A stretch of DNA of 64,000 bases from an uncultured Spirochaetota bacterium (GTDB lineage Bacteria > Spirochaetota > UBA4802 > UBA5550): NCBI GenBank assembly GCA_963827275.1, contig CAWHAA010000005.1:32001-96000 (forward strand). The letters run 5' to 3'. Shown here piece by piece: positions 7,542 through 25,599 of the stretch (positions within the stretch are counted from its first letter, which is position 1; every line of letters begins with the position of its first letter). A program made the translations under genes and the position numbers. Under the pieces are notes generated by a model. That model searched no databases and was not told the origin of the DNA. It worked only from the letters and a program-made list of their open reading frames with translations.

Positions 7542-8663
7542 TCACAACGGGCTCCGGATGCCCTTAAGCTGCGGATCATAGACCTTTGTATATATCGAAG
7601 TCGTGGTTATGTTCTTATGGCCGAGCAGCGCCTGTATGTGCCGAAGCGATATGCCGTTCTCGAGCAGGTGCGTGGCAAATGTATGCCGGAGGTCATGCGG
7701 CGACGCCTTTTTATTGATGCCGGCCTCCCTGAGCGCCCTCTCCAGCACCTTCTGCACTGTCCTTCCGGAAAGGGCATGGTGCCTTCCCTGCCTGTCCGTG
7801 CCGGACGAAAGGAATATGAACTCGTCACCACGCTTCCCATCCATAAACCGTCTCAGGTCATCGACAATCTTATCGGAAAAAATGGTGATGCGGTCTTTTT
7901 TCCCCTTCCCCTCCTTCACGTGAATCGACAGGCGCTCACAATCGACGTCCCGCACCCTCAGGCTGAGCAACTCGGAGAGCCTGAGCCCGGACGAGTAAAT
8001 AAGCGCGATCATTGTCCGGTGCTTCAGGTTTTTTATGCTGTCCAATATTCTCGCAATCTCGCCCCGGGTAAACACCACCGGAAGGTGCTTCGAATTCCGC
8101 ACTCCTTCAACAAACGAGAGGTCGATTGTCATGTTCAACATGTTATTAAAATAATACGCGAGCGCGAACCTGTACACTCGTACCGTCGATGCGGATGCTT
8201 CCCTGTCATTATTCAGATAAAGAAAAAACGCGCGGAAATCTGCATGATCCATATCGTCAATGTGTTTATTTTTTTTTGCCATGCTCCAGGCATGGATCAT
8301 TCGCACCGCGCTTAAATAAATTTTTATGGTTTTCCGCGAATATCGTTTCAACTTGAGCGTTTCTTCAAACTCTGTATACTGCCGCGGCAGTGACATCGGT
8401 TGCGCCACACTATTCCCGGACGCAGACACAACGGCCTTATCATTATCCTCATTTGGAAACCATGTTTCGATCTCTTTAAAAGCATTACGATATACACCGA
8501 GCGTTTTTTGAAAATAATCGCGCACCAGCAGAAAATCCCCGTAGCTAATTCTACTCCTGTTTCTTTCAAAAAACTCCATAATATTTTGGTTAGATATAAA
8601 CATTGCCTTTTTCCATGAATATTTCTCCAGCAACATCCCCAATATTCCATTTTCCATTCGCAT
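7542..8663 (-). CDS. Integron-like site-specific tyrosine recombinase lacking the canonical IntI insertion (start could lie up to 8744)
   Basis: N-terminal SAM-like domain (LKRYSRKTIKIY); full catalytic set in GLRLSE, GKGKKDR, HDLRHTFATHLLE, LLGH and IYT; divergent from the cassette array. Confidence 0.9.
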   Translation of the reverse strand: MRMENGILGMLLEKYSWKKAMFISNQNIMEFFERNRSRISYGDFLLVRDYFQKTLGVYRNAFKEIETWFPNEDNDKAVVSASGNSVAQPMSLPRQYTEFEETLKLKRYSRKTIKIYLSAVRMIHAWSMAKKNKHIDDMDHADFRAFFLYLNNDREASASTVRVYRFALAYYFNNMLNMTIDLSFVEGVRNSKHLPVVFTRGEIARILDSIKNLKHRTMIALIYSSGLRLSELLSLRVRDVDCERLSIHVKEGKGKKDRITIFSDKIVDDLRRFMDGKRGDEFIFLSSGTDRQGRHHALSGRTVQKVLERALREAGINKKASPHDLRHTFATHLLENGISLRHIQALLGHKNITTTSIYTKVYDPQLKGIRSPL

Positions 8664-8765
8664 CACCCCCCACATGTTTTCAACTACCATATCAGACCAT
8701 GATAATAAACGAATGGGAGGTTCGTTTAATAAAACATTATTCAATAAATTATGAATTTTTTCTTA

Positions 8766-8794
8766 TTGACTTTCGGCTCGCCTAACAGTAGCCT
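8766..8794 (+). promoter_or_regulatory. Candidate Pc-like promoter reading into the array
   Basis: TTGACT-17 bp-TAGCCT, about 30 bp upstream of the first cassette. Confidence 0.55.
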
Positions 8795-8833
8795 TAAAAA
8801 ATCATTAAGAAATTCGGACAATTTTAGTTAAAC
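8795..8833 (+). other. attI-like site, crossover G/TTAAAC at 8827/8828
   Basis: The repeated cassette sequence begins exactly at TTAAAC with no attC upstream; context AATTCGGACAATTTTAG/TTAAAC. Confidence 0.75.
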
Positions 8834-9300
8834 GCCATTTCGAGCGGCGGCCGCGGTTTTTTTGTTATAAATAAAAGAAAAAAATAGGGTTGGCTTTTCT
8901 TTCGATCATATAATAATTAAGGCAATAATCTTTTCGTTCGGTTGCAGCTTAACATTACGCGGCCGCCTCTGGGCTCGCAGGTCTCTCAGTATCGTTTTAT
9001 TGGGTCTTTCTGTTGATTCATAGATATGGGATAACCGACTGACGATATTGGTATGCAACTACTGTCGGTTGCAATACATCGCATAAAGCTTTAACTGGCA
9101 GGTCCTGCGATCCCAGTCGAAACGGCGCTTAACAAAGCATGGGGCGCTGCGCGCGGCCACGAAAATTTAGACGCTGTGGCCGCGCTTGGCCTCGCGCCTT
9201 TCCGCCAGCGGCGGTACTGATTGGCGGATGTTCTAACGCACCGCCACTGGCGGGGCGCTCGGCACACCGCCCTGCGGGCGGCGTCGCCCATGCTTGGACG
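8828..9300 (+). repeat. ORF-less structured cassette, copy 1 (variant A)
   Basis: Near-identical to the units at 9301, 10838, 11310, 15024 and 19074. Confidence 0.9.
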
Positions 9301-9306
9301 TTAAAC
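9127..9306 (+). repeat. attC-like site 1 (180 bp)
   Basis: GCTTAAC-A-AAGCATGGG...CCCATGCTT-GGAC-GTTAAAC. Confidence 0.85.
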
Positions 9307-9772
9307 GCCATTTCGAGCGGCGGCCGCGGTTTTTTTGTTATGAATAAAAGAAAAAAGAGGGTTGGCTTTTCTTTCGATCATATAATAATTAAGGCAATAG
9401 TCTTTTCGTTCGGTTGTAGCTTAACATTACGCGGCCGCCTCTGGGCTCGCAGGTCTCTCAGTATCGTTTTATTGGGTCTTTCTGTTGATTCATAGATATG
9501 GGATAACCGACTGACAATATTGGTGTGCAACTATTGTCGGTTGCACTACATCGCATAAAGCCTTAACAGACAGGTCCTGCGATCCCAGTCGAAACGGCGT
9601 TTAACAAAGCATGGGGCGCTGCGCGCGGCCACGAAAATTTAGACGCTGTGGCCGCGCTTGGCCTCGCGCCTTTCCGCCAGCGGCGGTGCTGATTGGCGGA
9701 TGTTCTAACGCACCGCCACTGGCGGGGCGCTCGGCACACCGCCCTTCGGGCGGCGTCGGCCATGCTTGGACG
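9301..9772 (+). repeat. ORF-less structured cassette, copy 2 (variant B)
   Basis: Direct repeat of 8828-9300 with diagnostic substitutions. Confidence 0.9.
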
Positions 9773-9778
9773 TTAAGC
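9599..9778 (+). repeat. attC-like site 2 (180 bp)
   Basis: GTTTAAC...GTTAAGC. Confidence 0.85.
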
Positions 9779-9891
9779 GCAATACAGCGCTGGCTTTGGG
9801 TTGGCTTTATGGTTGGTCCGGCCTCCTGCCGGCCTTTAATTATGAATTTCATTTTTAAAATATTCTTTTTCATTATTATAGGTTTTTATAT

Positions 9892-10605
9892 ATGAAAAGA
9901 TTAATTACTATTCTATCAATAACTTTCACTTTAATTTATTGTGAAAAATCTTATTCTAATTATTATCTGGGTCCTTATATATCTGTAGCTGTAGGTCAAA
10001 TGGCTCATACACAATCTTCAATTCGAGAAGTTTATGATAATTATATTTTTGGCGGAGGTGGAATCTTCCAAACATCGATTTATCGACGAGGTTTATATAA
10101 TTATAGATTAAATTTTTGTTTCGAAAAGATTTATATACCACATACGACCAAACTTGGAACTGATTTTAGAAATACAATTCGAGGAAATTTAATTAATACA
10201 ATTGCTTATTCAATTTATAAAAAAAGGAATTATAATTTATGGATCGGGCCGCAAATCGGTCTTCATATTTTATGGGGCGACAATTATCTAAGTGATAATA
10301 AATATAATAAATTGAATACGATCCTCATTTCATCAATAATAATGAATCCTGAACTACCACTAATCATTTTACTATATTCTTCGAATAATTATGTGAAATT
10401 TACTGATTTTATTTTTAGTTTTGCTCCGGAAATTGGCATTGATATAAATGCAACAGACTTTTTAATTATATCATTGGAAAGTGGATTGAGAGTAGGTATT
10501 CATTTGCCAACAAATAAAATATCTAGCTCTGTTACATTGTATAGATTTGAAGGATTTTTTAATCTTTCATTTTTATTTAGAATTAACAAAGAAGAAAATA
10601 CATAA
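9892..10605 (+). CDS. Cassette-encoded hypothetical exported protein, possibly an outer-membrane beta-barrel
   Basis: Signal-peptide-like N-terminus; alternating aromatic/hydrophobic strands; single ORF in cassette 9773-10837. Confidence 0.65.
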   Translation: MKRLITILSITFTLIYCEKSYSNYYLGPYISVAVGQMAHTQSSIREVYDNYIFGGGGIFQTSIYRRGLYNYRLNFCFEKIYIPHTTKLGTDFRNTIRGNLINTIAYSIYKKRNYNLWIGPQIGLHILWGDNYLSDNKYNKLNTILISSIIMNPELPLIILLYSSNNYVKFTDFIFSFAPEIGIDINATDFLIISLESGLRVGIHLPTNKISSSVTLYRFEGFFNLSFLFRINKEENT

Positions 10606-10663
10606 TTTTATTATGCCGCCGCCGTCCTGACGGCGGCAACTTGAACTGGGAGCGCTGTACTGC

Positions 10664-10843
10664 GCTTAACAAAGCATGGGACGCTGCGCGCGGCCACGAA
10701 AATTTAGACGCTGTGGCCGCGCTTGGCCTCGCGCCTTTCCGCCAGCGGCGGTGCCGATTGGCGGATGTTCTAACGCACCGCCACTGGCGGGGCGCTCGGC
10801 ACACCGCCCTTCGGGCGGCGTCGCCCATGCTTGAACGTTAAAC
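10664..10843 (+). repeat. attC-like site 3 (180 bp)
   Basis: GCTTAAC...GTTAAAC. Confidence 0.85.
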
Positions 10844-11309
10844 GCCATTTCGAGCGGCGGCCGCGGTTTTTTTGTTATAAATAAAAGAAAAAAGAGGGTT
10901 GGCTTTTCTTTCGATCATATAATAATTAAGGCAATAGTCTTTTCGTTCGGTTGCAGCTTAACATTACGCGGCCGCCTCTGGGCTCGCAGGTCTCTCAGTA
11001 TCGTTTTATTGGGTCTTTCTGTTGATTCATAGATATGGGATAACCGACTGACGATATTGGTATGCAACTACTGTCGGTTGCAATACATCGCATAAAGCTT
11101 TAACTGGCAGGTCCTGCGATCCCAGTCGAAACGGCGCTTAACAAAGCATGGGGCGCTGCGCGCGGCCACGAAAATTTAGACGCTGTGGCCGCGCTTGGCC
11201 TCGCGCCTTTCCGCCAGCGGCGGTACTGATTGGCGGATGTTCTAACGCACCGCCACTGGCGGGGCGCTCGGCACACCGCCCTTCGGGCGGCGTCGCCCAT
11301 GCTTGGACG
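10838..11309 (+). repeat. ORF-less structured cassette, copy 3 (variant A); its attC-like site spans 11136-11315
   Basis: Direct repeat of 8828-9300. Confidence 0.9.
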
Positions 11310-11781
11310 TTAAACGCCATTTCGAGCGGCGGCCGCGGTTTTTTTGTTATGAATAAAAGAAAAAAGAGGGTTGGCTTTTCTTTCGATCATATAATAATTA
11401 AGGCAATAGTCTTTTCGTTCGGTTGTAGCTTAACATTACGCGGCCGCCTCTGGGCTCGCAGGTCTCTCAGTATCGTTTTATTAAGTCTTTCTGTTGATTC
11501 ATAGATATGGGATAACCGACTGACAATATTGGTGTGCAACTATTGTCGGTTGCACTACATCGCATAAAGCCTTAACAGACAGGTCCTGCGATCCCAGTCG
11601 AAACGGCGTTTAACAAAGCATGGGGCGCTGCGCGCGGCCACGAATATTTAGACGCTGTGGCCGCGCTTGGCCTCGCGCCTTTCCGCCAGTGGCGGTACTG
11701 ATTGGCGGATGTTCTAACGCACCGCCACTGGCGGGGCGCTCGGCACACCGCCCTTCGGGCGGCGTCGCCCATGCTTGGACG
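11310..11781 (+). repeat. ORF-less structured cassette, copy 4 (variant B); its attC-like site spans 11608-11787
   Basis: Direct repeat of 9301-9772. Confidence 0.9.
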
Positions 11782-12491
11782 TTAAGCGCAATACAGCGGC
11801 TTTATTTTTTTGCTTTATTCTGGGGCCGGCCTCCTGCCGGACTATTCTTAAAGAAAATGCTTTTTTATTAATGTCCTGGAAGTCTATATCCACCTTTTCC
11901 ACTCAATTCTTGTAAGAGTGTAGAGATATTTTTTTATTATTAAAGAAATACTAAATAAAATATTCTGAAAAATAGCTCAATCTGTTCTCTTTTAGCTAAG
12001 ACGCAAGAGTAGTCTTTTTGATTTATTTTTTTATGTTTTTCTTGACCAGTATTCTCATGTGCATATATATAATTCTGTATTAAAATACTTTTTAAATATT
12101 AATACAAAAGAAAATGTTTGGACATTTGTTCGCCGTGAATTTATTGTACTGAAACGTAAGAGCATACTTTTTTAATTTATTATTTTCTTGGCTTATTCTT
12201 AACCGTAATAGTTATCTATTTTTTACATACTTCAGTATAAATATTATTTTTTTGCTGTAAGTGTATTTGCCGCCGCCGTCCTGACGGCGGCAACTTGAAC
12301 TGATAGCGCTGTACTGCGCTTAACAAAGCATGGGGCGCTGCGCGCGGCCACGAAAATTTAGACGCTGTGGCCGCGCTTGGCCTCGCGCCTTTCCGCCAGT
12401 GGCGGTGCCGATTGGCGGATGTTCTATCGCACCGCCGCTGGCGGGGCGCTCGGCACACCGCCCTTCGGGCGGCGTCGCCCATGCTTGGACG
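11782..12491 (+). other. Second type of ORF-less cassette (AT-rich core); its attC-like site spans 12318-12497
   Basis: No credible ORF; ends are shared with cassette 9773-10837. Confidence 0.8.
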
Positions 12492-12524
12492 TTAGGCGCA
12501 ATTTGGTTGATATTTAATAATATT

Positions 12525-13034
12525 ATGACAAATTTATTATCCTTAAAAGAAATAGAAAGCGAAGTAAATAATCTTGCAAGATTGATAAATGCACCAAAAG
12601 ATTATTTGCCAACATTTGGCTATACAAATGATTTTGCACAACCTCATATTGAGATAAATTATAATCAGTATCACTATGTAATTGTCGAGCGTGGCCAAGA
12701 ATTTGAAAGAAAATCAACGGAAAATATTCATGAACTTTTATATTGGATATTTGAATCAATAACATTTAATATGGCTATTGATTATGAATTTAAAAATAGA
12801 ATTGAAGATCTTGATTCTAGACGTATTGCTTTTAAAAAACAAGAAGAATTATTAAATCTACTTAATCCAGATTGGAAGAATACATTAGAAAATAAACATA
12901 AATTAATATTAGAAAAACATCCTTTTGATGACTTATCTGGTTTAAGGGCAACATATTGTAGGGAGTTGAGAGAAAAAGGATATTGTGAAGATGATATAAC
13001 TAAAAAGGCTTATGAAAAATATCCTTTGCCTTGA
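12525..13034 (+). CDS. Imm63-like immunity protein (cassette)
   Basis: PHIE...YHYVIVERGQEFERKST...ELLYWIF...DSRRIAF pattern, recognised from memory. Confidence 0.7.
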   Translation: MTNLLSLKEIESEVNNLARLINAPKDYLPTFGYTNDFAQPHIEINYNQYHYVIVERGQEFERKSTENIHELLYWIFESITFNMAIDYEFKNRIEDLDSRRIAFKKQEELLNLLNPDWKNTLENKHKLILEKHPFDDLSGLRATYCRELREKGYCEDDITKKAYEKYPLP

Positions 13035-13046
13035 CAACCAAACTGC

Positions 13047-13220
13047 GCATAACAAAGCATAGCCGCTCCGCTCCTCGCTCGCTAAGGCTCGCTGCGGTGC
13101 TCGGCCTCGCGCTTATCCCGCCAGCTGCGGCGGTGATTTGGGGAGGGTTTTGAGCCGCCTTGCTGGCGGGGCGCTCGGCAACCTGGCTTCGCCAGGTTCG
13201 GCTATGCTGAGACGTTAGGC
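13047..13220 (+). repeat. attC-like site (174 bp)
   Basis: GCATAAC-AA-AGCATAGCCG...CGGCTATGCT-GAGAC-GTTAGGC. Confidence 0.85.
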
Positions 13221-13298
13221 GCCATTTCTGGCTGGCTTTTTTATTTCCTCGCCATCCATGGCTCGGAATTATTATCATATTTTATCAGGAGGACATTT

Positions 13299-13883
13299 AT
13301 GGGTCTAATTGTTCATTCATTAGAAAACATACCTCAATCTTCAAATAGGGATTATATAATATATTTACTCGATTATGGCTGGAGTGAACCAATTGGAAAA
13401 GCTCTTAATGATAATTTTGATCATATGGCTAATATTGCAGCAAATAATCGAGCTGTAATTATTAAGGGAACTAGATTAGGTGATTTTGCAAACGAAGTTT
13501 TTTCTTGGCATCATATAAATAATATTGATGCCGATGACATTCTTCCTGCATTATTAATTACCAATAAACATCCCGTATATTTTAAAGATTATGAGTTTGG
13601 ATATCGCCAAAAAAAGGGATTATATAGAGACACCAAAGATGATGATTTAAAATTAATTCTAATACCTTTTAAAAAGTTTTGTAAAACAACAACTGAGGTA
13701 ATTTCTTTAATCGAAAAAGTATTTTCTGATATAATTAACAAAAAGGATTTATCAAATTTTTCTGTAGCAAAAGAAATGAAAAAAGGAATATGTTCTGCAA
13801 TTGTAGACGCTATAATACTTGAGCCTAATTTTTCCGGAATTGGTTTTAGTTTTAATAAATTCAGGAGTTATTTAAAAACTTAA
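13299..13883 (+). CDS. Cassette-encoded hypothetical protein
   Basis: 194-aa ORF with a strong RBS (AGGAGG); family not recognised. Confidence 0.8.
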   Translation: MGLIVHSLENIPQSSNRDYIIYLLDYGWSEPIGKALNDNFDHMANIAANNRAVIIKGTRLGDFANEVFSWHHINNIDADDILPALLITNKHPVYFKDYEFGYRQKKGLYRDTKDDDLKLILIPFKKFCKTTTEVISLIEKVFSDIINKKDLSNFSVAKEMKKGICSAIVDAIILEPNFSGIGFSFNKFRSYLKT

Positions 13884-13958
13884 AATTAACTTATTTGTAA
13901 TTACTCAAAAGTACATCCATGTACTTTTGAACTTTTTCGTTTTAATGCCAGAAACGGC

Positions 13959-14206
13959 GCCTAACAAAGCATAACCGCTCCGCTCCTCGCCCACTTCGCG
14001 GGCTGCGGTGCTCGGCCTCGCGCCTGGCCGCCTCCGTCGGTGCCGATTTGGGGATGATCTAAAGCACCGACTCCGGCGGCGCGCTCGGCTCATTTTTCGG
14101 CGCTTCTTAGTTTCAAATAAATTAGTACTTGCAAAATTGCTTACAACAGGATAGATAACTTTTCGCGGCCAGGCCTCAAAACGACGGTTATGCTTGGACG
14201 TTAAGC
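13959..14206 (+). repeat. attC-like site (248 bp)
   Basis: GCCTAAC-A-AAGCATAACCG...CGGTTATGCTT-GGAC-GTTAAGC. Confidence 0.8.
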
Positions 14207-14241
14207 GACATTGCCATTTTTTTATGTATTTGGAGTTATGA

Positions 14242-14863
14242 ATGATTCCATCAGAAAGACACCCAATTGTTTCATTCTTCCTTGATGCTTATTTCATTGA
14301 AACATTTTTAAATCTTATAAAAAAATTATATCTGCCGAACGAGTATTTTAATATATCTATAAGAATAATATTTAATGATAATATTCATATTTTACCATGC
14401 TTACTATTATAAAAAAACAAAATTCCGCACTATTGGCGAACTTATTACTGGAACCTATATAGATAGTGATGGTAATAAATATTTTCTTAATCCATTTTAT
14501 TTAAATCGTTTTATTTTATGGGTTCCAATGTTTCTCACCTTTGTTGGTTTAAAATCTGTAAATATAATTCAAATAAATGACTTAAAATTAATTTCATCAT
14601 TAATATTTATTGGCATTTTATTATTAACATATTTTTCATACATCATGTTAAATAGAGGATATGTTATCGGTTTAATTTTATTATTAATAATTTATGCTTC
14701 TTTAATTTTTAATGTAATATACAATAAAGGATTTATTATAAAATTATTTGATTGGGAATTAATAATAGAATTCACATTATTATTGTTATTTATAACAATA
14801 ATAATAGCATATTGGATTATAAGAATGAATAAATTTCAAAATATAAATGGCAACGTCGCTTAA
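14242..14863 (+). CDS. Cassette membrane protein, RDD-like N-terminus; apparent frameshift near 14373
   Basis: MIPSERHPIVSFFLDAYF from 14242 after RBS GGAG, continuing in another frame as YYYKKTKFRTIGELITG plus four TM segments; stop codon lies within the attC R'' box. Confidence 0.6.
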
Positions 14864-15029
14864 CACGGCGTTCACGCTCCGCTCCTCGGGGCTTCGCCCC
14901 TGCGGTGCTCGGCTTCGCGCCTCGCCCGCCGGTTTCGGCGGTTTTCGGAGGAGTGTTCTGAGCCGTTTCACCGGCGGGGGCGCTCAGCAACCTGGCTTCG
15001 CCAGGTTCGTAAACGCCGGAACGTTAAAC
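14858..15029 (+). repeat. attC-like site (172 bp)
   Basis: GCTTAAC-A-CGGCGTTCACG...CGTAAACGCCG-GAAC-GTTAAAC. Confidence 0.85.
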
Positions 15030-15495
15030 GCCATTTCGAGCGGCGGCCGCGGTTTTTTTGTTATAAATAAAAGAAAAAAGAGGGTTGGCTTTTCTTTCGA
15101 TCATATAATAATTAAGGCAATAGTCTTTTCGTTCGGTTGCAGCTTAACATTACGCGGCCGCCTCTGGGCTCGCAGGTCTCTCAGTATCGTTTTTTTGGGT
15201 CTTTCTGTTGATTCATAGATATGGGATAACCGACTGACGATATTGGTATGCAACTACTGTCGGTTGCAATACATCGCATAAAGCTTTAACTGGCAGGTCC
15301 TGCGATCCCAGTCGAAACGGCGCTTAACAAAGCATGGGGCGCTGCGCGCGGCCACGAAAATTTAGACGCTGTGGCCGCGCTTGGCCTCGCGCCTTTCCGC
15401 CAGCGGCGGTACTGATTGGCGGATGTTCTAACGCACCGCCACTGGCGGGGCGCTCGGCACACCGCCCTGCGGGCGGCGTCGCCCATGCTTGGACG
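15024..15495 (+). repeat. ORF-less structured cassette, copy 5 (variant A); its attC-like site spans 15322-15501
   Basis: Direct repeat of 8828-9300. Confidence 0.9.
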
Positions 15496-15547
15496 TTAGG
15501 CGAAAAAACGCCAAAATATAAGTCGAGGTAAAAAGGAAATTTATATT

Positions 15548-17989
15548 ATGGAAATTTATGCTATACTATTAAAATTATTTGATTTTCTTAATAAAATGTC
15601 TAATATTTCCTTTACAACATTTATCGCATTCATAGGAGCTATTACTGGTTCATTAACTTTTTATTATACTTTTTTAAAAAGATTTAATCCAAAATGTATA
15701 ATTAGTGGTGATATTATTTTTCATTGCAACAAAGGTTCTTTAAAAAATAATGATGCCTATTTAAAAGAAATAGAGTTAAATATTACATTCAGCAATGAAT
15801 CTAATAAGTATGGGTTGATTGAAGACCTACTAGTTCGTATATATTCAACGGATGGGATCACAAGAGAAACTGATCCTACCCCACAATTCGACCAGTTTCA
15901 AGTTTAGTTTTCTCGATCACTAACATATCATTATATTGTTTTGGCGTCATCCCTTTTAATCTCTTTTGAGGTCTTTCCTCGTTATATTCTCTCCACCATT
16001 CATGAATAATCTCTCTGGCTGTACTCAGTTTTTTAAAATAATGAGCACTGAGACATTCATTCCGAAATGTTCCATTAAAACTTTCTATGTGGCAATTATC
16101 TGATGGCTTGCCGGGCCTTGTGAAAATTATTTTAATCCCCTTTTCATAGCACCAACGGTCGAGTTCCTGGCTTCTAAATTCAGGACCATTGTCACATTGT
16201 ATAAATTCTGGATACCCAAAGGATTCACATGCTCTTTCAAGTAGTTCAGAAACATCCTTACCCGTTATTGAAAATCCAGTATGAATAAGTGGCGAATGAT
16301 TCGTTACAGGGTCAATCGCTGTCAGTATTTTGAGATTCTTTTTAAAGCCCACCGAGTCATGAATGAAATCTAAAGCCCATATGACGCCAGGTTCATTCGG
16401 CAATTCAACGGGTGATCGTTCTAATGAAGCTATCTTTTTCCGACGTTTCCGCGCTCGTAATTGCAGCCCATGCTCTTTATATATCCTTTCTGTACGCTTA
16501 TGATTAATCAGTATCCCTTTTTGCCTCAGCTTGAGCTGTATCATTCCGCAGCCATATTTTGAATTTTTTGAAAGGATCGAATCTATCTCTCCAATGATTC
16601 GTGCGTCATCATTTGGCTGCGGACTATATAAAAATGTAGAACGAGCCATGCAAGAAACCTTGCATGATCGTCGTATCGAAAACCCGAAGCTACTCATCAG
16701 ATAGCTTACTGCCTCTCTCTTCACTCCGGGTCGCAGAACTTTTTTATGATCTCCTTCTGTGCCATGTTATCCAGGGATAAATCGGCAACCAGTTTCTTTA
16801 ATCGTGTATTTTCATCTTCAAGTAGTCGCAATCGAACAATTTCCTGAGAGCTCATATCTCCATATTTGCGCTTCCAGATATAAAAGGAGTTCTCACTAAT
16901 GCCGTGTTCTCGGGCGATATCCTTTACCTTTTTTCCCGCCTTATGCTCACCAAGGATCCTGACAATCTGCTCTTCTGAGAATCGTTTTTTCATTTTAACC
17001 TCATTAGTCTTGATTATTTATCGGTTAAAACTAAACTATCTCGTGGTACAAATTTAAGGGGTGGGATCAAAACCACTCCTTATTTTATAAGTCTTTTCAA
17101 GGATCATGATAATCCTGATAAATTGCCATTTTACCCTATCGTATTAATCCCTAAAAGTTTTCGTTCATCTACATTTATCTTTATCGATCGAATTGCCGCA
17201 TCAGAAAAAATAATAAATATTGATCGTGATTATAATCTTCAATTATTCATTAAATATAAAAAAGAAAATAATTGGGTTTTAATTGATGATATAACTCTAT
17301 ATTGTAAATTAAAAGATAATACCAATCAATTATTTGATTTAATATTTATGTCTATAAATCAACAGATTATTCGCGATAAGGCTAAAGACTATATTGGGAA
17401 AATTCCAAAACCTTTTTACAGAGGAATAATACATCAATGGTTTAAAATTATATTTGAGGAAGTTAAGTTTTTCATTATAAGGACAATTTATAAATTGTTG
17501 CATTTCATACAATGTATTTACCATCTTATTCTCTCTGGAATTAATTGGCTTGTATCTTTTATTGTAATAAATAACCTATTAATATTTTTATCTTCAAAGA
17601 CTAAGGAAATTAAAACAAGTAGCCAAATTGGTCCCGATGAGCAAACACTGGATTATATAAAAAAACTACACAAAGTAATTTTAAAATTAGTTACTAAAAT
17701 TAATAATAGATCAGAAAGCAAAATTGATATTCAATACAAAGGCAAAGATATTTTATTAAGTCGCAATAATTTTGAAATTATTATTTATGCACCTGGCGTT
17801 AACCATATAATGGCACATGATAAAGAAAGTCATGAATATAAGCTTTTTCTTGAATTTGCGATGGTTGTAAATAGGATTAATCATAAATATTGGACATATG
17901 ATGATAAATTTATATCGATTACGAGAATAGCATTAAAAATTATTGATAGTTTTAGCTTAATGACTCAATATAAAATAATTCCTGAATAA
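15548..17989 (+). pseudogene. Cassette hypothetical membrane protein interrupted by IS3
   Basis: Removing 15871-17073 rejoins ...TDGITRET-TPYFISLFKDHDNPDKLPFYP... in frame. Confidence 0.8.
15871..17069 (-). mobile_element. IS3-family element, copy 1 (1199 bp; orfA 16721-16993, orfB 15876-16724)
   Basis: IRs TGATCCTACCCC/GGGGTGGGATCA; AAAC target duplication; orfA MKKRFSEEQI; orfB DDE motifs WALDF, DNGPEF, IESFNG; A6G slippery site at the orfA end. Confidence 0.95.
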
Positions 17990-18002
17990 TTGACGTTTCT
18001 TC

Positions 18003-18125
18003 GCCTAACAAAGCATAACCGCTGCGCGCGGCCACAAGAAATGAAGCTGTGGCCGTGCTCGGCCTGCGGCACACCGCGCCAAGGGAGGAAGCTGGCGCGG
18101 CGTCGGTTATGCTTGGACGTTAAGC
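18003..18125 (+). repeat. attC-like site (123 bp)
   Basis: GCCTAAC-A-AAGCATAACCG...CGGTTATGCTT-GGAC-GTTAAGC. Confidence 0.85.
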
Positions 18126-18189
18126 GCCATGGAAAAAGAGCTTTTTGCCCGCCATCCGTGGCGGGCTTTTTAAGAAATATATTTTTTTC

Positions 18190-18218
18190 TTGACATGTAG
18201 TCATTATATGACTACTTT
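18190..18218 (+). promoter_or_regulatory. TA cassette promoter with palindromic operator
   Basis: TTGACA-17 bp-TACTTT overlapped by GTAGTCAT-tat-ATGACTAC. Confidence 0.75.
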
Positions 18219-18223
18219 GATTT

Positions 18224-18487
18224 ATGTTCTCAGTTAAAATATCAAAAAAGGCTATTAAGGGCATTCATAAAATGCCCATTAAAATTCAAGAAAGAATGAA
18301 TGTCCTTCTTAAAGATCTACGTGCAAAAGGACCCATGCGATATGAATGGCCAAATTTTAGTAAATTAGATGAAAATCTGTATCATTGTCATTTAGCTCAC
18401 AAATGGATCGCATGCTGGAAATATGAAAAACATACAATCATTATAGAGGTTTATTATGCAGGCTCACGTGAAAACGCCCCATATTAA
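18224..18487 (+). CDS. RelE-like toxin (toxin-first TA cassette 1)
   Basis: 87-aa basic protein ending IIIEVYYAGSRENAPY, upstream of an XRE-HTH gene. Confidence 0.7.
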   Translation: MFSVKISKKAIKGIHKMPIKIQERMNVLLKDLRAKGPMRYEWPNFSKLDENLYHCHLAHKWIACWKYEKHTIIIEVYYAGSRENAPY

Positions 18488-18824
18488 AATTAATATTAAA
18501 GGTGAAATTCATCCCAAAGTTCTTTCTGTTTTAAAAGAAGTCTATGGGAAAAAAGTTAAACTTATCAAGGAAAATGATGAAGAATTAGTTGATGCCTTTG
18601 AAACTGAATGGTTTAAAAATATTGATGCCACCATGTCTCCCGGCAAAAACATGAGGATATATCGAGAAATTCATAAAATGACCCAAGAAGAACTAGGTAA
18701 CAAATTAGGTGGCATTTCTAAACAAAATATTTCTCATATGGAACGAGGTATTAGACCTATTAGTAAAAAAACTGCTAAATCATTGGCTTCAATTTTTAAA
18801 GTTCCGGCAGACCGTTTTATTTGA
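18456..18824 (+). CDS. XRE-family HTH antitoxin (HigA-like)
   Basis: MTQEELGNKLGGISKQNISHMERGIRPIS. Confidence 0.8.
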   Translation: MQAHVKTPHIKINIKGEIHPKVLSVLKEVYGKKVKLIKENDEELVDAFETEWFKNIDATMSPGKNMRIYREIHKMTQEELGNKLGGISKQNISHMERGIRPISKKTAKSLASIFKVPADRFI

Positions 18825-18900
18825 CTATTTTTAAGATATTGCCCTGCCCTCGCCCGTCCTGGACTCGGGCAGTAAATACTTATACTATTTTTTCCACGGC

Positions 18901-19079
18901 GCTTAACACGGCGTTCACGCTCCGCTCCTCGGCGGCTTATTGGCGCCTGCGGTGCTCGGCTTCGCGCCTTGCCCGCCGGTTTCGGCGGTTTTCAGAGGAG
19001 TGTTTTGAGCCGCCTCACCGGCGGGCGCGCTCAGCAACCTGGCCTGCGGCCAGGTTCGTAAACGCCGGAGACGTTAAAC
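18901..19079 (+). repeat. attC-like site (179 bp)
   Basis: GCTTAAC-A-CGGCGTTCACG...CGTAAACGCCG-GAGAC-GTTAAAC. Confidence 0.85.
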
Positions 19080-20482
19080 GCCATTTCGAGCGGCGGCCGC
19101 GGTTTTTTTGTTATGAATAAAAGAAAATAAATAAGGTTGGCTTTTCTTTCGATCATATAATAATTAAGGTGTAATAGACTCGATTTAATCTGACACTCTT
19201 CCGATAAATGGAGCAGAAAATGCTCTGAATAATTATACGGAGGAGTACATGACAACAGAACAGAAAGTCATCAGGAACAAAATGGGGTTATTAAACCTCG
19301 CAGAGCAGATTGGGAATGTCAAAAAAGCATGTCACATTATGGGATATTCCCGAGACAGTTACTACCGGCTAAAGGAACTTTATGATACTGGTGGTGAAGA
19401 AGCGTTAAAAGAAATCAGCAGAAAAAAAGCTAATATAAAGAATCGTGTTGATCCAAGTGTTGAAACTGCAGTTAACAGCATTGCAATTGAGTATCCCGCA
19501 TTTGGACAGGTTCGGGCTTCTAATGAACTGAGAAAACAGGGGATATTTGTCTCACCTACCGGAGTAAGAAGCATATGGCTCCGTAATGATCTTGAAACCA
19601 TGAAGAAGCGGCTCAAGGCACTTGAGGCCAAGGTCGCTCAAGATGGAATCATTCTCACGGAATCACAGCTTGCCGCATTAGAGAAAGCCAAAGAGGAAAA
19701 GGAAGCTCATGGTGAGATTGTATCTGAACATCCTGGTTATCTGGGTTCGCAGGACACAATGTATGTAGGAACGGTCAAAGGTGTTGGCCGGATATACCAG
19801 CAGACTTTTATAGACACGTATTGTAAGGTGGCTTTTGCAAAGTTATACAATATGAAAACACCAATTACCTCTGCCGACATATTGAACGACAGGGTTATAC
19901 CGTTTTATGAAAACAGCAGCATTAAGCTGATCCGAGTATTGACGGATCGTGGTACCGAATATTGCGGGAAAATGGAAAGTCATGACTATGAACTGTTTCT
20001 TTCGATTGAGGATATTGAGCACACAAAGACAAAGACGCGGCATCCTCAAACAAATGGAATATGCGAAAGATTTCATCGAACCATTCAAGATGAATTTTAT
20101 CGCATAGCATTTAGAAAGAAAATTTACAACACTCTTGATGAACTTCAGAAGGATCTTGACATATGGATTGTTCAATATAATAATGAGAGACCGCATAGTG
20201 GAAAATATTGTTATGGCAAAACACCGATAGATACGTTCAAGGATTCGTTAGTGCTTGCAAAAGAAAAACTGCTAAACTTTAACTGACAGGCAGTTTGGAA
20301 GTGATTGGTGAGTGTCAGATGAAGTTCAGAGTTTTACAATTAAGGCAATAATCTTTTCGTTCGGTTGCAGCTTAACATTACGCGGCCGCCTCTGGGCTCG
20401 CAGGTCTCTCAGTATCGTTTTATTGGGTCTTTCTGTTGATTCATAGATATGGGATAACCGACTGACGATATTGGTATGCAAC
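19074..20482 (+). repeat. ORF-less structured cassette, copy 6, interrupted by IS481 and truncated by IS3
   Basis: Repeat sequence is present at 19074-19169 and 20339-20482. Confidence 0.85.
19170..20338 (+). mobile_element. IS481-family element (transposase 19249-20286)
   Basis: TGT...ACA ends with imperfect IRs sharing ATCTGACACT; ATTAAGG duplicated on both sides; TDRGTEY and TNGICERFHRT motifs. Confidence 0.93.
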
Positions 20483-21681
20483 TGATCCTACCCCACAATT
20501 CGACCAGTTTCAAGTTTAGTTTTCTCGATCACTAACATATCATTATATTGTTTTGGCGTCATCCCTTTTAATCTCTTTTGAGGTCTTTCCTCGTTATATT
20601 CTCTCCACCATTCATGAATAATCTCTCTGGCTGTACTCAGTTTTTTAAAATAATGAGCACTGAGACATTCATTCCGAAATGTTCCATTAAAACTTTCTAT
20701 GTGGCAATTATCTGATGGCTTGCCGGGCCTTGTGAAAATTATTTTAATCCCCTTTTCATAGCACCAACGGTCGAGTTCCTGGCTTCTAAATTCAGGACCA
20801 TTGTCACATTGTATAAATTCTGGATACCCAAAGGATTCACATGCTCTTTCAAGTAGTTCAGAAACATCCTTACCCGTTATTGAAAATCCAGTATGAATAA
20901 GTGGCGAATGATTCGTTACAGGGTCAATCGCTGTCAGTATTTTGAGATTCTTTTTAAAGCCCACCGAGTCATGAATGAAATCTAAAGCCCATATGACGCC
21001 AGGTTCATTCGGCAATTCAACGGGTGATCGTTCTAATGAAGCTATCTTTTTCCGACGTTTCCGCGCTCGTAATTGCAGCCCATGCTCTTTATATATCCTT
21101 TCTGTACGCTTATGATTAATCAGTATCCCTTTTTGCCTCAGCTTGAGCTGTATCATTCCGCAGCCATATTTTGAATTTTTTGAAAGGATCGAATCTATCT
21201 CTCCAATGATTCGTGCGTCATCATTTGGCTGCGGACTATATAAAAATGTAGAACGAGCCATGCAAGAAACCTTGCATGATCGTCGTATCGAAAACCCGAA
21301 GCTACTCATCAGATAGCTTACTGCCTCTCTCTTCACTCCGGGTCGCAGAACTTTTTTATGATCTCCTTCTGTGCCATGTTATCCAGGGATAAATCGGCAA
21401 CCAGTTTCTTTAATCGTGTATTTTCATCTTCAAGTAGTCGCAATCGAACAATTTCCTGAGAGCTCATATCTCCATATTTGCGCTTCCAGATATAAAAGGA
21501 GTTCTCACTAATGCCGTGTTCTCGGGCGATATCCTTTACCTTTTTTCCCGCCTTATGCTCACCAAGGATCCTGACAATCTGCTCTTCTGAGAATCGTTTT
21601 TTCATTTTAACCTCATTAGTCTTGATTATTTATCGGTTAAAACTAAACTATCTCGTGGTACAAATTTAAGGGGTGGGATCA
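20483..21681 (-). mobile_element. IS3-family element, copy 2 (encodes proteins identical to copy 1)
   Basis: Same IRs and identical orfA/orfB translations; flanks come from two different cassettes. Confidence 0.95.
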
Positions 21682-21689
21682 AAACCCAT

Positions 21690-22142
21690 ATGAAAATACT
21701 TATAAAACTCCTGCCATTTATATTAGGTGGTGCCTTAGTTATTCAATCTTCACTAAATAAATCAATTGCCCAATCAAAAGGCTTAAGCACAGCATTAGTC
21801 ATAAATGGATTAATTGTTGTATTCTGTTCATTAATAATATTTATTTTATCATATTTTTTCCCACATCACTTCTCGGAAATTATTACTTATAACAACAATA
21901 ATTTGATATTTAAATGGTGGTATATAATTCCTGGTTTTTTAGGATTTTGTGCATTATTAATTCTTCCAATTGGAATTATGAAAATTGGTGCCTTACCAAT
22001 TTTTCTTGGAGTAATTGCTGGGCAAATAATCGTAAGTATTATATATGATTTTTATTTTGAAAATATTTCAATTAATTTAATTCGTGTATCAGGAGCCTTA
22101 TTAACTTTTATTGGAGCCTTTTTGGTAGTTTGGAAAAGATGA
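21690..22142 (+). CDS. DMT-superfamily (YdcZ/DUF606-like) small transporter (cassette)
   Basis: Five TM segments; QSSLN, WWYIIPGFLG, GQIIVSIIYD, RVSGALL. Confidence 0.75.
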   Translation: MKILIKLLPFILGGALVIQSSLNKSIAQSKGLSTALVINGLIVVFCSLIIFILSYFFPHHFSEIITYNNNNLIFKWWYIIPGFLGFCALLILPIGIMKIGALPIFLGVIAGQIIVSIIYDFYFENISINLIRVSGALLTFIGAFLVVWKR

Positions 22143-22317
22143 ATAATTATTCAAATCACAAGTAATAACCAACAAATAACTAATAACTTGACAAAATATG
22201 TATTTATTATTATAGAATATATAAATTACATGCAAAATATTATTTTTTTTTACCTTAATGTTGCTTTTCGCCATCCATGGCTCAAAGCAAATATGCCTTA
22301 ATGTGTATGGCCACTTC

Positions 22318-22455
22318 ACCTAACAAAGCATAGCCGCTGCGCGCGGGAATACCGCGCTTGGCCTCCGCGCCAAGATATGAAGACGGCGCTACGGCACATT
22401 TTCACCTCCGCGAGTACGCTCCGGTGAAAACGTCGGCTATGCTTGGACGTTATAC
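22318..22455 (+). repeat. attC-like site (138 bp)
   Basis: ACCTAAC-A-AAGCATAGCCG...CGGCTATGCTT-GGAC-GTTATAC. Confidence 0.85.
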
Positions 22456-22515
22456 GCCATGGCAAACTTTTCGCCTGCCATCCATGGCGGGCGTGGTATT
22501 TCATAATAAAATATG

Positions 22516-22544
22516 TTGACAAGTAACCCTTATTTGGTTACATT
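22516..22544 (+). promoter_or_regulatory. TA cassette promoter with palindromic operator
   Basis: TTGACA-17 bp-TACATT overlapped by GTAACC-cttattt-GGTTAC. Confidence 0.75.
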
Positions 22545-22549
22545 GCATT

Positions 22550-22813
22550 ATGTATAAAGTAGTAATTACAAAAAGCACCCTCAAAGGCATTGAAAAAATG
22601 CCTAAATTTTCACAATTAGCAATGGGGAACTTAGTTGATGATCTTAAGGAGTGTGGCCCTATTCAAAAACACTGGGCTAATTTTAGTAAAATTGGAAAGA
22701 ATAAATTCCATTGCCATTTATCATATAAATGGGTTGCATGCTGGGAATTTTATGAAAATAATATATTAATTGAGGTTTATTATGCAGGTTCACGTGAAAA
22801 CGCCCCGTATTAA
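22550..22813 (+). CDS. RelE-like toxin (TA cassette 2)
   Basis: Paralogue of 18224-18487 with the same EVYYAGSRENAPY end. Confidence 0.7.
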   Translation: MYKVVITKSTLKGIEKMPKFSQLAMGNLVDDLKECGPIQKHWANFSKIGKNKFHCHLSYKWVACWEFYENNILIEVYYAGSRENAPY

Positions 22814-23147
22814 AATTGATATTAAAGGCGAAATTTCTAAAAAACACCTTTCTTTGCTGAAAAAAGAATATGGTGAAAATCTTCATTTAATTAATAAAGA
22901 TGATAAGTCTATTGATGTCTTTAAAACTGAATGGTACAAAAATATTAAATCTCAAATGACCCCTGGGACAAATTTAAAAGTTTATAGAATAAATAAAGGA
23001 TTAACCCAAGCTCAGTTAGGGGAATTACTTGGTGGCATTCCTAAACAGCATATATCAAATATGGAAAACGGGAGAAGGCCCATTAGTTTAAAAATGGCAA
23101 AAATTTTAGCCAGATTCTTTAAGGTATCAGTTGATAAATTTGTTTAA
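22782..23147 (+). CDS. XRE-family HTH antitoxin
   Basis: LTQAQLGELLGGIPKQHISNMENGRRPIS; paralogue of 18456-18824. Confidence 0.8.
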   Translation: MQVHVKTPRIKIDIKGEISKKHLSLLKKEYGENLHLINKDDKSIDVFKTEWYKNIKSQMTPGTNLKVYRINKGLTQAQLGELLGGIPKQHISNMENGRRPISLKMAKILARFFKVSVDKFV

Positions 23148-23222
23148 TTTTTTATTACCTTTGGCCCGCCTCCGCACGTCCTGTGCTTCGGCGGTAGAGC
23201 TTTTTTACTTCATTGCCACGGC

Positions 23223-23528
23223 GTATAACACGGCGTTCACGCTCCGCTCCTCGGCGGACTTGGGCCGCCTGCGGTGCGCTGATCAGGATGATCGAGTGTC
23301 GAGCCGCAACAGGATGTTGCGAAAAGGCTCGACCTCGGCCTCCCGCCTTTCCGCCTCCGTCGGTGCCGATTCGGGGATAATCTAAAGCACCGACTCCGGC
23401 GGGGCGCTCGGCTCATTTTTCGGCGCTTTTAAGTTTCAAATAAATTCTTCTTGCAAAAATGCTTATAACAGGCTAAATAACTTTTAGCAGCCAGGCCTCA
23501 AAACGACGGTTATGCTTGAACGCTATAT
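23223..23528 (+). repeat. Chimeric, probably inactive attC-like site (306 bp)
   Basis: GTATAAC-A-CGGCGTTCACG left arm paired with a CGGTTATGCTT-GAAC-GCTATAT right arm. Confidence 0.75.
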
Positions 23529-23599
23529 GCAATTGCCCCATTTTATATAGAATAGAAAAATATAGTATAAATATTACAAAAAAATTGTGCATATAAATT

Positions 23600-24355
23600 A
23601 TGTCTGTAGATTATAACCAACTATCAAAACAATATAAAAACTATAGAAGACCTGACACTCGGATTTTAAGGCAAATACAATATTATCTTCAAAATGCTCA
23701 ATGTATTTTAAATGTTGGAGCTGGTATTGGATCCTATGAGCCTGTAGATAGTAAAGTAGTCGCCATCGAACCATCTTTTGAAATGATTTCAAAAAGAGAT
23801 AATTCAAAAGCACTTTTGGTACAAGCAATTGCCGAAAAGCTGCCTTTTAAAAATAATATCTTTGATTGCTCCATGGCAATTTTAACAATACATCATTGGT
23901 CAAATGCAATTTCTGGTCTTAAAGAAATGATCAGAGTTACAAAATATAAAATTGTCTTATTTACTTGGATTGGATATGGCAATAACTTTTGGCTAGAGAA
24001 TTATATACCCGAAATTATTGGAATTGATATAAAATTATTTCCAACAATAGATGAACTTAAACGAATACTTGGAAATGTCATAGTTGAAATTGTTGAAATA
24101 CCTTATGATTGTACAGATGGATTCATGTGTGCCTATTGGAGAAGACCGGAAATGTATTTGGATCCAAATGTGCGGAAGGCCATATCTACTTTCTCACGCA
24201 TACCCGAAAATCCCGAGGGACTAAATAAACTACGAAAGGATATTGAAAGTGGCGAATGGTATAATAAGTACAGCTATTTGCTTGATAAAGAAACTATTGA
24301 TTTAGGATATAGATTAGTTATATCTGAAAACAAAGAATGGGGCAACTGCACATAA
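23600..24355 (+). CDS. Class I SAM-dependent methyltransferase (cassette)
   Basis: LNVGAGIGSYE, AEKLPF, LTIHHW; stop codon lies in the R'' box. Confidence 0.88.
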   Translation: MSVDYNQLSKQYKNYRRPDTRILRQIQYYLQNAQCILNVGAGIGSYEPVDSKVVAIEPSFEMISKRDNSKALLVQAIAEKLPFKNNIFDCSMAILTIHHWSNAISGLKEMIRVTKYKIVLFTWIGYGNNFWLENYIPEIIGIDIKLFPTIDELKRILGNVIVEIVEIPYDCTDGFMCAYWRRPEMYLDPNVRKAISTFSRIPENPEGLNKLRKDIESGEWYNKYSYLLDKETIDLGYRLVISENKEWGNCT

Positions 24356-24474
24356 CAAAGCACACCCGCTGCGCGCGGCCACAAGAAATGAAGCTGTGGC
24401 CGTGCTCGGCCTGCGGCACACCGCGCCTAAGGGAGGAAGACGGGCCCGGCGGCGGCTATGCTGGAACGTTGTTC
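24350..24474 (+). repeat. attC-like site (125 bp, partly degenerate)
   Basis: ACATAAC...GGAAC-GTTGTTC; core similar to the 18003-18125 site. Confidence 0.75.
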
Positions 24475-24515
24475 GAAACCCGGCGGTTTTGAAATTTGAG
24501 AGGAACTCTTTCATA

Positions 24516-25406
24516 ATGAAAAACTTCAAGTTTAAGAAAATCGATGCTTTTACAGATAAGTCATCTCATGGCAATCCGGCAGCTGGCATTTATTTAGATA
24601 ATCTTAATGATATTTCAGACATGGAAATGCTAACTATAGCCAGTGAACTTAAAGGTTTTGTCAGCGAAGTTGTATTTCTATTTCCAGAGAAGGATGGATA
24701 TTTTTTAAAATACTATTCTTCTGAATGTGAAGTTGAATTTTGCGGCCATGGAACTATTGCAATAATGTTTGATCTGATTAAAAATAGCCCGAATCTTTTA
24801 GATGAAAAAGTCATCAATATTAGAGTTAGAAACGAAAATCTTAAAATCTATAATCAAATTAATAATAATAACTCAATTTTTATAACTGCCCCAAACCCGA
24901 CGTATCATTCTTGTAATATTAATCATAATGATCTAATTTCTTGTCTAAATATTTCTTTAGATACAATTAATAGCAATCTGCCAATTGATATAATAAATGC
25001 CGGACTGAATACTCTAATTGTACCAATTATAAATCTTAATAAATGCCTTAATGTGAAGCCTGACCAAGAAGTTCTAAAATATTTCTGCCTGGACAATACT
25101 ATTGATATAATACATATCTTCACAAATGAAGTATCGAAAGGAACCAATAATTATCGAACAAGAGTTTTTGCTCCAAAGTATGGGTATTTGGAAGATCCGG
25201 CAACTGGTTCTGGCAATTCTGCCTTTGGGTATTATTTATTGAAAAATAACCTATGGGCTGGACAATTACTGAAAATTGAACAAAATAAAGAATATGAAAT
25301 GTCTAATTTGGTGAAATTAAATACGGTAATGTTAGATAATAAACTACGTGTTTTATTTGGCGGCTCCGCAACACTAAAAATAGATGGAGCATATACTTTA
25401 TATTAA
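24516..25406 (+). CDS. PhzF-family isomerase (cassette)
   Basis: IDAFT...GNPA, EVEFCGHGTIA, EDPATGSGN. Confidence 0.9.
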   Translation: MKNFKFKKIDAFTDKSSHGNPAAGIYLDNLNDISDMEMLTIASELKGFVSEVVFLFPEKDGYFLKYYSSECEVEFCGHGTIAIMFDLIKNSPNLLDEKVINIRVRNENLKIYNQINNNNSIFITAPNPTYHSCNINHNDLISCLNISLDTINSNLPIDIINAGLNTLIVPIINLNKCLNVKPDQEVLKYFCLDNTIDIIHIFTNEVSKGTNNYRTRVFAPKYGYLEDPATGSGNSAFGYYLLKNNLWAGQLLKIEQNKEYEMSNLVKLNTVMLDNKLRVLFGGSATLKIDGAYTLY

Positions 25407-25425
25407 GGAATTATCGCCGATATTC

Positions 25426-25550: not shown

Positions 25551-25599
25551 TTGCATCGCCATCCATGGCATCGAATAATAATAGACACGGGCCAATGTA

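Follow-up and report, generated by a model that had tools for sequence, protein, structure and literature searches.

How does a recombinase find the correct strand of a folded cassette end when neither it nor its sites carry the features to which this choice is commonly ascribed? The question is raised by a cassette array in a stretch of 64,000 nucleotides (nt) from an uncultured Spirochaetota bacterium (contig CAWHAA010000005.1, positions 32,001 to 96,000 of the forward strand; hereafter the window, whose own numbering is used throughout). In the prevailing view, the I2 helix of the integron integrase (IntI) and the extrahelical bases of the attC site permit the use of a folded single strand and the choice of the bottom strand. 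Both features are missing from the array in the window, which keeps instead an invariant wobble at position 11 of its paired cassette ends, followed by stem extensions private to each cassette. With moderate confidence, we interpret the locus as a variant of the chromosomal integron, in which an IntI relative devoid of I2 would act on attC sites with a longer R arm, a wobble mark and a private clamp.

Pairing of cassette ends and the mispair at position 11

The array starts at 8827 on the plus strand and consists of AT-rich cassettes alternating with GC-rich imperfect palindromes of 123-306 nt, which open with ...YAAC and close with GTT.... The window contains 15 such attC-like sites, each reaching from R'' (...AAC) to R' (GTT...), with a bottom-strand fold z-score of -7.2. 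Fifteen units lie between 8827 and 24474, and a degraded 16th starts at 24468. In each unit, an ungapped comparison was made between the cassette start, counted from the G of R', and the flank running up to the AAC of the unit's own R'', taken as its reverse complement. Fourteen of the 15 units show identity at positions 8 to 10 and from position 12 up to 16-21; apart from position 11, no more than one mismatch occurs per unit, and it lies in the R box, so that the paired length totals 16-21. At position 11, all 15 units have A in the start where the reverse-complemented end has G, which places A opposite C on the top strand and T·G on the bottom strand. The exception to the pairing is unit 13, whose ends are unmatched beyond position 8, yet carry A and G at position 11. 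A sequence-only reading of this DNA had quoted nine cassette types, all of which are present as written, and had described ends that are self-complementary for 15-20 bp with a mismatch at position 11, A facing C on the top strand and a wobble on the bottom strand. These counts bear that description out. The units and their arms, all on the plus strand, are as follows.

Cassette 1 (type A, non-coding): start arm 8827..8843, end arm 9117-9133, attC 9127-9306
Cassette 2 (type A variant): start arm 9300..9316, end arm 9589-9605, attC to 9778
Cassette 3 (type B, open reading frame (ORF) of 237 amino acids (aa)): start arm 9772..9791, end arm 10651-10670, attC to 10843
Cassette 4 (type A): start arm 10837..10853, end arm and attC 11126..11315
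Cassette 5 (type A variant): start arm 11309..11325, end arm and attC 11598..11787
Cassette 6 (ends as cassette 3, other interior): start arm 11781..11798, end arm and attC 12307..12497
Cassette 7 (Imm63 domain protein, Pfam): start arm 12491..12509, end arm and attC 13035..13220
Cassette 8: start arm 13214..13232, end arm and attC (248 nt) 13947..14206
Cassette 9: start arm 14200..14219, end arm and attC 14845..15029
Cassette 10 (type A): start arm 15023..15039, end arm and attC 15312..15501
Cassette 11: start arm 15495..15510, end arm and attC (123 nt) 17994..18125
Cassette 12 (87-aa ORF and HTH_3 protein): start arm 18119..18137, end arm and attC 18889..19079
Unit 13 (chimera made by insertion sequences (IS)): 19073..22455
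Cassette 14: start arm 22449..22465, end arm and attC (306 nt) 23213..23528; its R' reads GCT
Cassette 15 (methyltransferase, Pfam): start arm 23522..23542, end arm and attC (125 nt) 24336..24474
Unit 16 (PhzF-like gene, Pfam): 24468..25560; ends degraded, read by eye

The R' positions of two units were corrected against the first reading (GTTATAC starts at 22449, GCTATAT at 23522). Finders that required an R-box match or an AC before GTT were dropped, because they missed sites with foreign R' flanks or returned false AT-rich matches; the final finder missed two window sites, which were entered by hand. The end arm is coding in two cassettes: the ORF 14375-14863 of cassette 9 terminates at a TAA within R'', and the ORF 23600-24355 of cassette 15 stops in R''. 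In these cases, the start arm must therefore have followed the left arm of the site.

Recombinase and array are also adjacent in five genomes of the same genus (G016, G008, G014, G001, and G013). The window was pooled with the arrays beside orthologous integrases (54-75% identity) in five same-genus genomes, which yielded 48 pairs of consecutive sites (41 unique). The R boxes match in 32 unique pairs, which were therefore taken as true cassette ends; in the remaining nine, a site was missed or the unit rearranged, so that the two ends are not partners. Among the 32 own-end pairs, positions 1-10 are identical in 91-100%, with an invariant G8 (32/32) and only C or A at positions 9-10, always equal to the partner. 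At position 11, every start has A (32/32) and the reverse-complemented end has G in 30/32; the nine non-partner pairs carry A and G there as well (9/9). The mark is thus conserved in related arrays, a test by which the sequence-only reading had proposed to be judged (A/G in 30 of 32 unique cassettes from six genomes). T12 is found in 28 of the 32 pairs. Positions 12-17 are 91-100% identical between own ends while all four bases are used, which is covariation; identity falls to approximately 70% at positions 18-19 and to background from about position 20. At least six identical bases running from position 12 were found in 28 of the 32 own-end pairs, compared with 5 of the 988 non-own pairs that served as a chance control.

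Crossover and cassette mobility

Positions 4-7 of the R box match the cassette's own R'' in 91-100%, and the R'' of the upstream site in only 33-73%. Since these positions follow the downstream cassette, strand exchange probably takes place at G/TT, as in classical integrons. Several observations suggest a working array, namely shuffled and duplicated cassettes, compensatory changes and modules that recur in other metagenomic contexts. Cassettes 12 and 14 are homologous, and between them both arms have changed at R-box positions 5-6 and at position 15; by their sequence, these are compensatory changes. One contig from another metagenome keeps the attC through 14204 and then switches to a type-B-like cassette start, and in another, the type A start at 15021 is preceded by a different attC (single contigs, at least 90% likeness). 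Contigs from four other metagenomes cover mainly attC sites; no sequencing run contained more than 0.20 of the sampled words, and uncovered cassette bodies carry no evidential weight.

As its own alternative, the sequence-only reading had offered a footprint of cassette making. On this view, the paired ends would have been left by, for example, fold-back copying at a hairpin and would have no function today. Such copying would account, without selection, for a private part that is unrelated between cassettes and may overlap coding sequence. It predicts perfect repeats, however, and neither an invariant transition mispair at one position nor the sharp end of the pairing at 17-20. The compensatory changes between cassettes 12 and 14 also argue against it, as does the recurrence of the same layout across genera and phyla and its absence from the classical integrons of the same phylum, both described below. 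We therefore consider a functionless footprint quite improbable.

Cassettes with common ends or bodies were observed repeatedly. Cassettes 3 (9772-10836) and 6 (11781-12490) have in common their first 18 bases and approximately 55 bases before R'', including a GC-rich hairpin, and their interiors are unrelated (a 237-aa ORF versus AT-rich DNA without a long ORF). The non-coding cassette of 472-473 bp is present in five intact copies (8827-9299, 9300-9771, 10837-11308, 11309-11780, and 15023-15494), in which two sequence variants alternate, and in one copy disrupted by IS (19073-19168 and 20340-20479). Its body contains no ORF of at least 60 aa and gave no Rfam match. Amplified short non-coding cassettes also occur in relatives, with a 242-bp body present five times at one locus (L012) and a 257-bp body at another (L013).

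Predicted folds of the cassette ends

For 30 unique cassettes, the own ends were joined in silico and folded with DNA parameters; all structures are minimum free energy (MFE) predictions. The mean energies were the following.

Own ends joined (n = 30): bottom strand -67.4 kcal/mol, top strand -63.3 kcal/mol
Array context: bottom strand -54.0 kcal/mol, top strand -51.7 kcal/mol

In 27 of the 30 folds, the outer stem of the bottom strand comprises 14-20 continuous pairs outward from AAC, and 3-4 nt on its 5' arm, with none opposite, remain unpaired between the R and L stems (27/30), which corresponds to the unpaired central spacer of classical attC sites in a one-sided form. The L stem is unbulged and 11 bp long in 19 of the 30 folds. 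No pair of single-base bulges, as expected for extrahelical bases, was found in the 30 MFE folds, whereas the same procedure applied to classical sites showed two such bulges 6 bp apart (positive control). The wobble and the fold energies suggest that the bottom strand would be the folded recombination substrate.

With exchange at G/TT, everything from T2 outward moves with the downstream cassette, and the full outer stem would consequently exist only in the excised circle, where the own ends are joined. Within the array, positions 12-17 are paired at 4 of 48 attC sites, all of them between tandem copies of the same cassette. The extended outer stem that had been proposed for the circular cassette thus finds support both in this low count and in the change of the bottom-strand mean from -54.0 to -67.4 kcal/mol upon joining of the own ends.

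The stem might instead act in RNA, as a terminator or a translational element of the cassette transcripts. The cassette ORFs lie on the top strand, and both arms would be cotranscribed if the array is read through. However, the sense RNA would carry the A·C mispair, the wobble being on the antisense strand, and the transcript would separate the arms by hundreds to thousands of bases; in addition, Rfam gave no match at 8700-25700. A role in RNA appears scarcely credible.

The recombinase

The gene next to the array and the region between the two are listed here.

7542..8744, minus strand: integron-type tyrosine recombinase without I2 segment (Pfam Phage_integrase, 2.9e-43)
8745..8829, plus strand: putative attI region between integrase start and first cassette, junction G8827/TT

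The gene is divergent from the array. Its ORF opens at TTG 8744; the alignment with the relatives begins near 8660, which is probably close to the true start. The locus was assessed by the functional definition of an integron (integrase, attI and attC-bounded cassettes). A divergent adjacent recombinase, palindrome-bounded cassettes and a probable G/TT crossover are all present, and the locus is thus laid out like a chromosomal integron.

The catalytic residues R255, K283, H350, R353, H376, and Y385 are invariant in our alignment (A1, from which one reference with stop codons is left out), as in a tyrosine recombinase. The IntI-specific additional domain near patch III, the I2 helix, was not found. 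The integron integrase model TIGR02249 scored 214 bits against a cut-off of 265 and matched only at model positions 4-179 and 229-313, positions 180-228 being unmatched. In comparison with VchIntIA (2a3v), 18 aa replace residues 177-233 (56 aa). Between the GKGxKxR and HxLRH motifs, each of the ten genus members has 64 aa and the distant relatives have 58 aa, against 100 aa in four classical IntI proteins from the same phylum. By this gap in the model match, the alignment with VchIntIA and the motif spacing, the integrase lacks the I2 segment, which in classical IntI reads the extrahelical bases according to the abstract of PMC7790495.

A short D-x-x-G-R-H-H stretch is retained, and the protein ends in KGIRSPL, the ...SPL end being common to VchIntIA in the alignment. 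The best NCBIfam match was the XerA/integron-integrase model NF040815 (217.1 bits, cut-off 220), and the scores with the XerC (179.5, cut-off 335) and XerD models (163.8, cut-off 330) do not identify it as a Xer resolvase; separate XerC/D-like genes are located on contigs C6 and C10. An N-terminal extension of approximately 90 aa (8370-8660, minus strand), for which Pfam gave no match, is conserved in the ten genus members and absent from distant relatives with the mark. Since these marked systems lack it, the extension is not needed for the mark.

Comparison with full-length IntI integrons

As a control, integrons with full-length IntI from the same phylum were analysed; 41 of the 401 genomes searched exceeded the TIGR02249 cut-off. 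Linking sites by their 7-nt R boxes alone produced too much noise in AT-rich genomes, and array-specific motifs from k-mer counts were used instead. The resulting sample covered six spirochaete loci with two attC families and 53 unique cassettes. Own-end pairing in these drops from 85% at position 7 through 66% at position 8 to 8% at position 9 (n = 53). Pairing thus ends at position 8, and the extended marked pairing is absent from all 53 cassettes. Class 1 integrons were not recovered by tblastn of the integrase against plasmids (E ≤ 1e-15), and 14 control genomes contained no integron integrase above the cut-off. The comparison with class 1 and Vibrio integrons therefore relies on one statement, in an excerpt of Bouvier et al. 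(2009; PMC2727003), that classical cassettes mostly self-pair past the 7-nt R boxes, over 9-11 consecutive nt.

Distribution beyond the genus

A strict search blind to position 11 was conducted for GTT...AAC ends 150-4000 nt apart with perfect identity at positions 4-10 and 12-15. A and G stood at position 11 in 54 of the 57 unique pairs, distributed as follows.

Window: 7 with A and G, 0 other
Same genus: 36 with A and G, 2 other
Other families of the order: 6 with A and G, 1 other
Loci of other phyla: 4 with A and G, 0 other
One isolate plasmid: 1 with A and G, 0 other
392 kb flanking classical IntI genes: 0 with A and G, 0 other

The loci of other phyla are, by their titles, from Fulvivirga, uncultured Bacteroidetes and a metagenome-assembled genome of Spirochaetes; a Peribacteraceae locus holds one further pair with one mismatch. 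When one mismatch was allowed, two cassette-like A/G units were found on a plasmid of Chryseobacterium sp. SNU WT5 (NZ_CP041688.1) and four on a plasmid of Rufibacter tibetensis (NZ_CP012644.1), both cultured Bacteroidota, in each case directly downstream of the recombinase gene. The units on these plasmids (loci L107 and L108, respectively) are co-directional with that gene, in contrast to the divergent layout in the window, and the cassette-like region of NZ_CP041688.1 includes a group II intron reverse transcriptase. For 14 distant pairs, the orientation was checked with the attC placed by the finder: A belongs to the cassette start in 11 of them, three were left unassigned and none showed the contrary orientation. 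Among 80 metagenome loci with related recombinases, 76 held no strict end pair. The six strict pairs obtained comprised three with A and G, all in one array, and one each with T/T, A/A, and C/T. The mark thus appears frequent, if not necessarily universal, among recombinases without I2. No relative of the integrase was found in the viral contigs searched.

One genome of the same family (G023; contigs C43 and C63, locus L017) encodes both a classical full-length IntI (387 bits) and a relative without I2 that is 49% identical to the window integrase; the cassette ends adjoining the latter carry the mark at position 11.

This distribution bears on the idea that the mispair only protects the DNA, by reducing cruciform extrusion or nuclease attack, and that it owes its position to an accident inherited from a single ancestral attC. 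The sites of the genus are all related to one another, and shared ancestry can fix a position. On the other hand, the mark is kept in attC families unrelated in sequence, in other phyla and on plasmids, and it stays while the flanking private bases turn over freely. A single mispair would also matter little between arms that are separated by 0.3-2.5 kb in the array or by a 120-300-nt attC in the circle. We regard protection as very improbable.

Proposed mechanism and its alternatives

The bottom-strand hairpin would be composed of an R stem (positions 1-10), the fixed T·G at position 11, a T-A pair at position 12 and 4-9 base pairs specific to the cassette; on the inner side of the R stem, a one-sided bulge of 3-4 nt would be followed by the unbulged 11-bp L stem. 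Positions 8, 11, and 12 would be family-wide, with positions 9-10 and 13-19 covarying within each cassette. Positions 2-12 may represent the binding arm of the recombinase, of the size known from Xer sites, with the wobble beneath the N-terminal core-binding domain, at the outer limit of the arm. There, the wobble could distinguish the bottom-strand hairpin from the top strand, which would carry a C·A mispair, and from duplex DNA, in which no mispair is possible. Because it arises only in a folded strand, and only in the bottom one, it would be a natural mark of the folded and correct strand. A mark that replaces the extrahelical bases is consistent with the unbulged L stem and the missing I2. 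The private part (positions 13-19) would clamp the hairpin of the excised single-stranded circle and favour its re-insertion, and the weaker sites within the array would keep the array stable.

More broadly, we tentatively propose an integron-like lineage, present in several phyla and on some plasmids, that lacks I2 and extrahelical bases. In it, the strand would be chosen by a single T·G, the tenth base pair of a lengthened R arm, and a private clamp would make only the excised circle a strong substrate. This would amount to a second, independent way for a recombinase of the Xer type to read a folded single strand.

Several points weigh against this mechanism. The evidence is computational, so that binding, cleavage and strand choice are all deduced, and every structure considered is an MFE prediction. 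The outer stem alone amounts to -21.3 kcal/mol on the bottom and -19.9 kcal/mol on the top strand; with a gain of only approximately 1.4 kcal/mol, the wobble cannot act via stability alone. The one-sided bulge between R and L is already strand-asymmetric and could suffice. Two exceptions to the A/G mark occur in the pooled set, one cassette with a true A-T pair and the 242-bp cassette with A opposite CG, present in five copies in one relative. The classical control is confined to its six spirochaete loci and two attC families, and strict pairs came from only 4 of the 80 metagenome loci, with one clear array.

The mispair could also be a by-product of two separate base contacts. A T would be needed at arm position 11 on the cut bottom-strand R', and the C at this place in the top-strand R'' arm, which is identical otherwise, would be an anti-determinant against cleavage of the wrong strand or of the duplex R'' half-site. 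If T and C are each required, the G opposite T follows automatically. The near-invariance of each base taken singly, also in the pairs that are not partners, agrees with such contacts, as does the conservation of the neighbouring arm positions G8 and T12 as sequence. The thermodynamic effect of the wobble is small, and the one natural exception keeps T and loses only G. Two contacts predict the same sequences as recognition of the wobble, however, so that sequences cannot separate the two, and the T/T and C/T variants from the metagenomes, which are without an assigned orientation, fit neither neatly. We consider separate base contacts a close but less likely alternative, and retain recognition of the wobble as the working interpretation.

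Further features of the array

Cassette 11 is interrupted by an IS.

15868..17074, minus strand: IS copy with rve-type transposase inside cassette 11, identical to 20480-21686

The two identical stretches are 1207 bp long, and a third IS of another type (19169-20340) lies between them. Unit 13 contains, in this order, a type A start, the IS of the other type (transposase 19249-20286), the second copy of the rve-type IS (20480-21686), the tail of a DMT/YdcZ cassette and an attC (22318-22455). The fusion of a type A cassette by ISs to this tail indicates an IS-mediated deletion in the array.

The ends of unit 16 are paired at positions 1-10 with one mismatch, unpaired at 11-13 and paired again at 14-18, and a degenerate attC is located near 25430-25560. 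In the region 24468-26460, degenerate GC-rich palindromes without a clear R' follow the methyltransferase and PhzF-like genes; it looks like a decaying distal end of the array.

The two-gene cassettes at 18224-18824 and 22550-23147 are homologous, each with an 87-aa ORF overlapping the gene of an HTH_3 protein of 122-125 aa, a layout that resembles toxin-antitoxin pairs. The sequence CCATCCRTGG occurs five times, versus 0.31 expected, always on the plus strand of the array (13252, 18152, 22271, 22478, and 25559) and mostly 30-40 nt past a cassette start; each copy forms the loop of a small GC-rich hairpin. The pattern SSCGTCCTGKNS was not array-specific.

Significance

The pairing of some bases past the R box has been published before (excerpt of PMC2727003). 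Searches of open-access full text and bioRxiv yielded nothing on a fixed mispair at position 11 or on private extensions to approximately 20 bp, nor on cassette arrays served by an IntI relative without I2. If the mark is a strand signal, it would provide a simple and testable rule of strand choice, explain why standard tools would miss such systems or call them integrase-less, and offer a smaller pair of recombinase and site for engineering. The private clamp suggests a route by which the capture of excised circles could be favoured over loss from the array. The two plasmids of cultured Bacteroidota with the same signature (NZ_CP041688.1 and NZ_CP012644.1) are possible bench material.

Comparison with known systems

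With classical integrons (class 1, Vibrio with VCR and VchIntIA, and the chromosomal integrons of spirochaetes), the locus shares a divergent integrase next to attI and a promoterless cassette array, an imperfect palindrome R''-L''...L'-R' with AAC/GTT ends that terminates each cassette, an inferred G/TT crossover, and first cassette bases that complement the cassette's own R''. The pairing of positions 8-10 is like the self-pairing over 9-11 nt mentioned for classical cassettes in the excerpt of PMC2727003. Unlike in classical integrons, the pairing here passes a fixed mispair at position 11 and continues to 16-21 nt, the folds contain no pair of extrahelical bases and have a one-sided bulge as the spacer, and the recombinase lacks the I2 segment.

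The resemblance to Xer recombination lies in the catalytic motif spacing (64 aa here, 58 aa in the distant relatives) and in the size of the arms. Xer sites have arms of about 11 bp, a length approximately matched here by the L stem and by the R arm as far as the mark. XerCD, which are recombinases without I2, integrate the folded single-stranded attP of phage CTX. Unlike here, where hairpins are cassette-borne and form arrays, Xer sites are single duplex sites on chromosomes or plasmids. Moreover, the window protein remains below the cut-offs of NF040815, XerC and XerD and, like VchIntIA, ends in ...SPL.

The term CALIN, in the sense of IntegronFinder, denotes attC clusters that have no integron integrase. 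A program that requires an I2 profile would probably place this array among them. Unlike in a CALIN, a conserved recombinase adjoins the array both in the window and in five genomes of the same genus.

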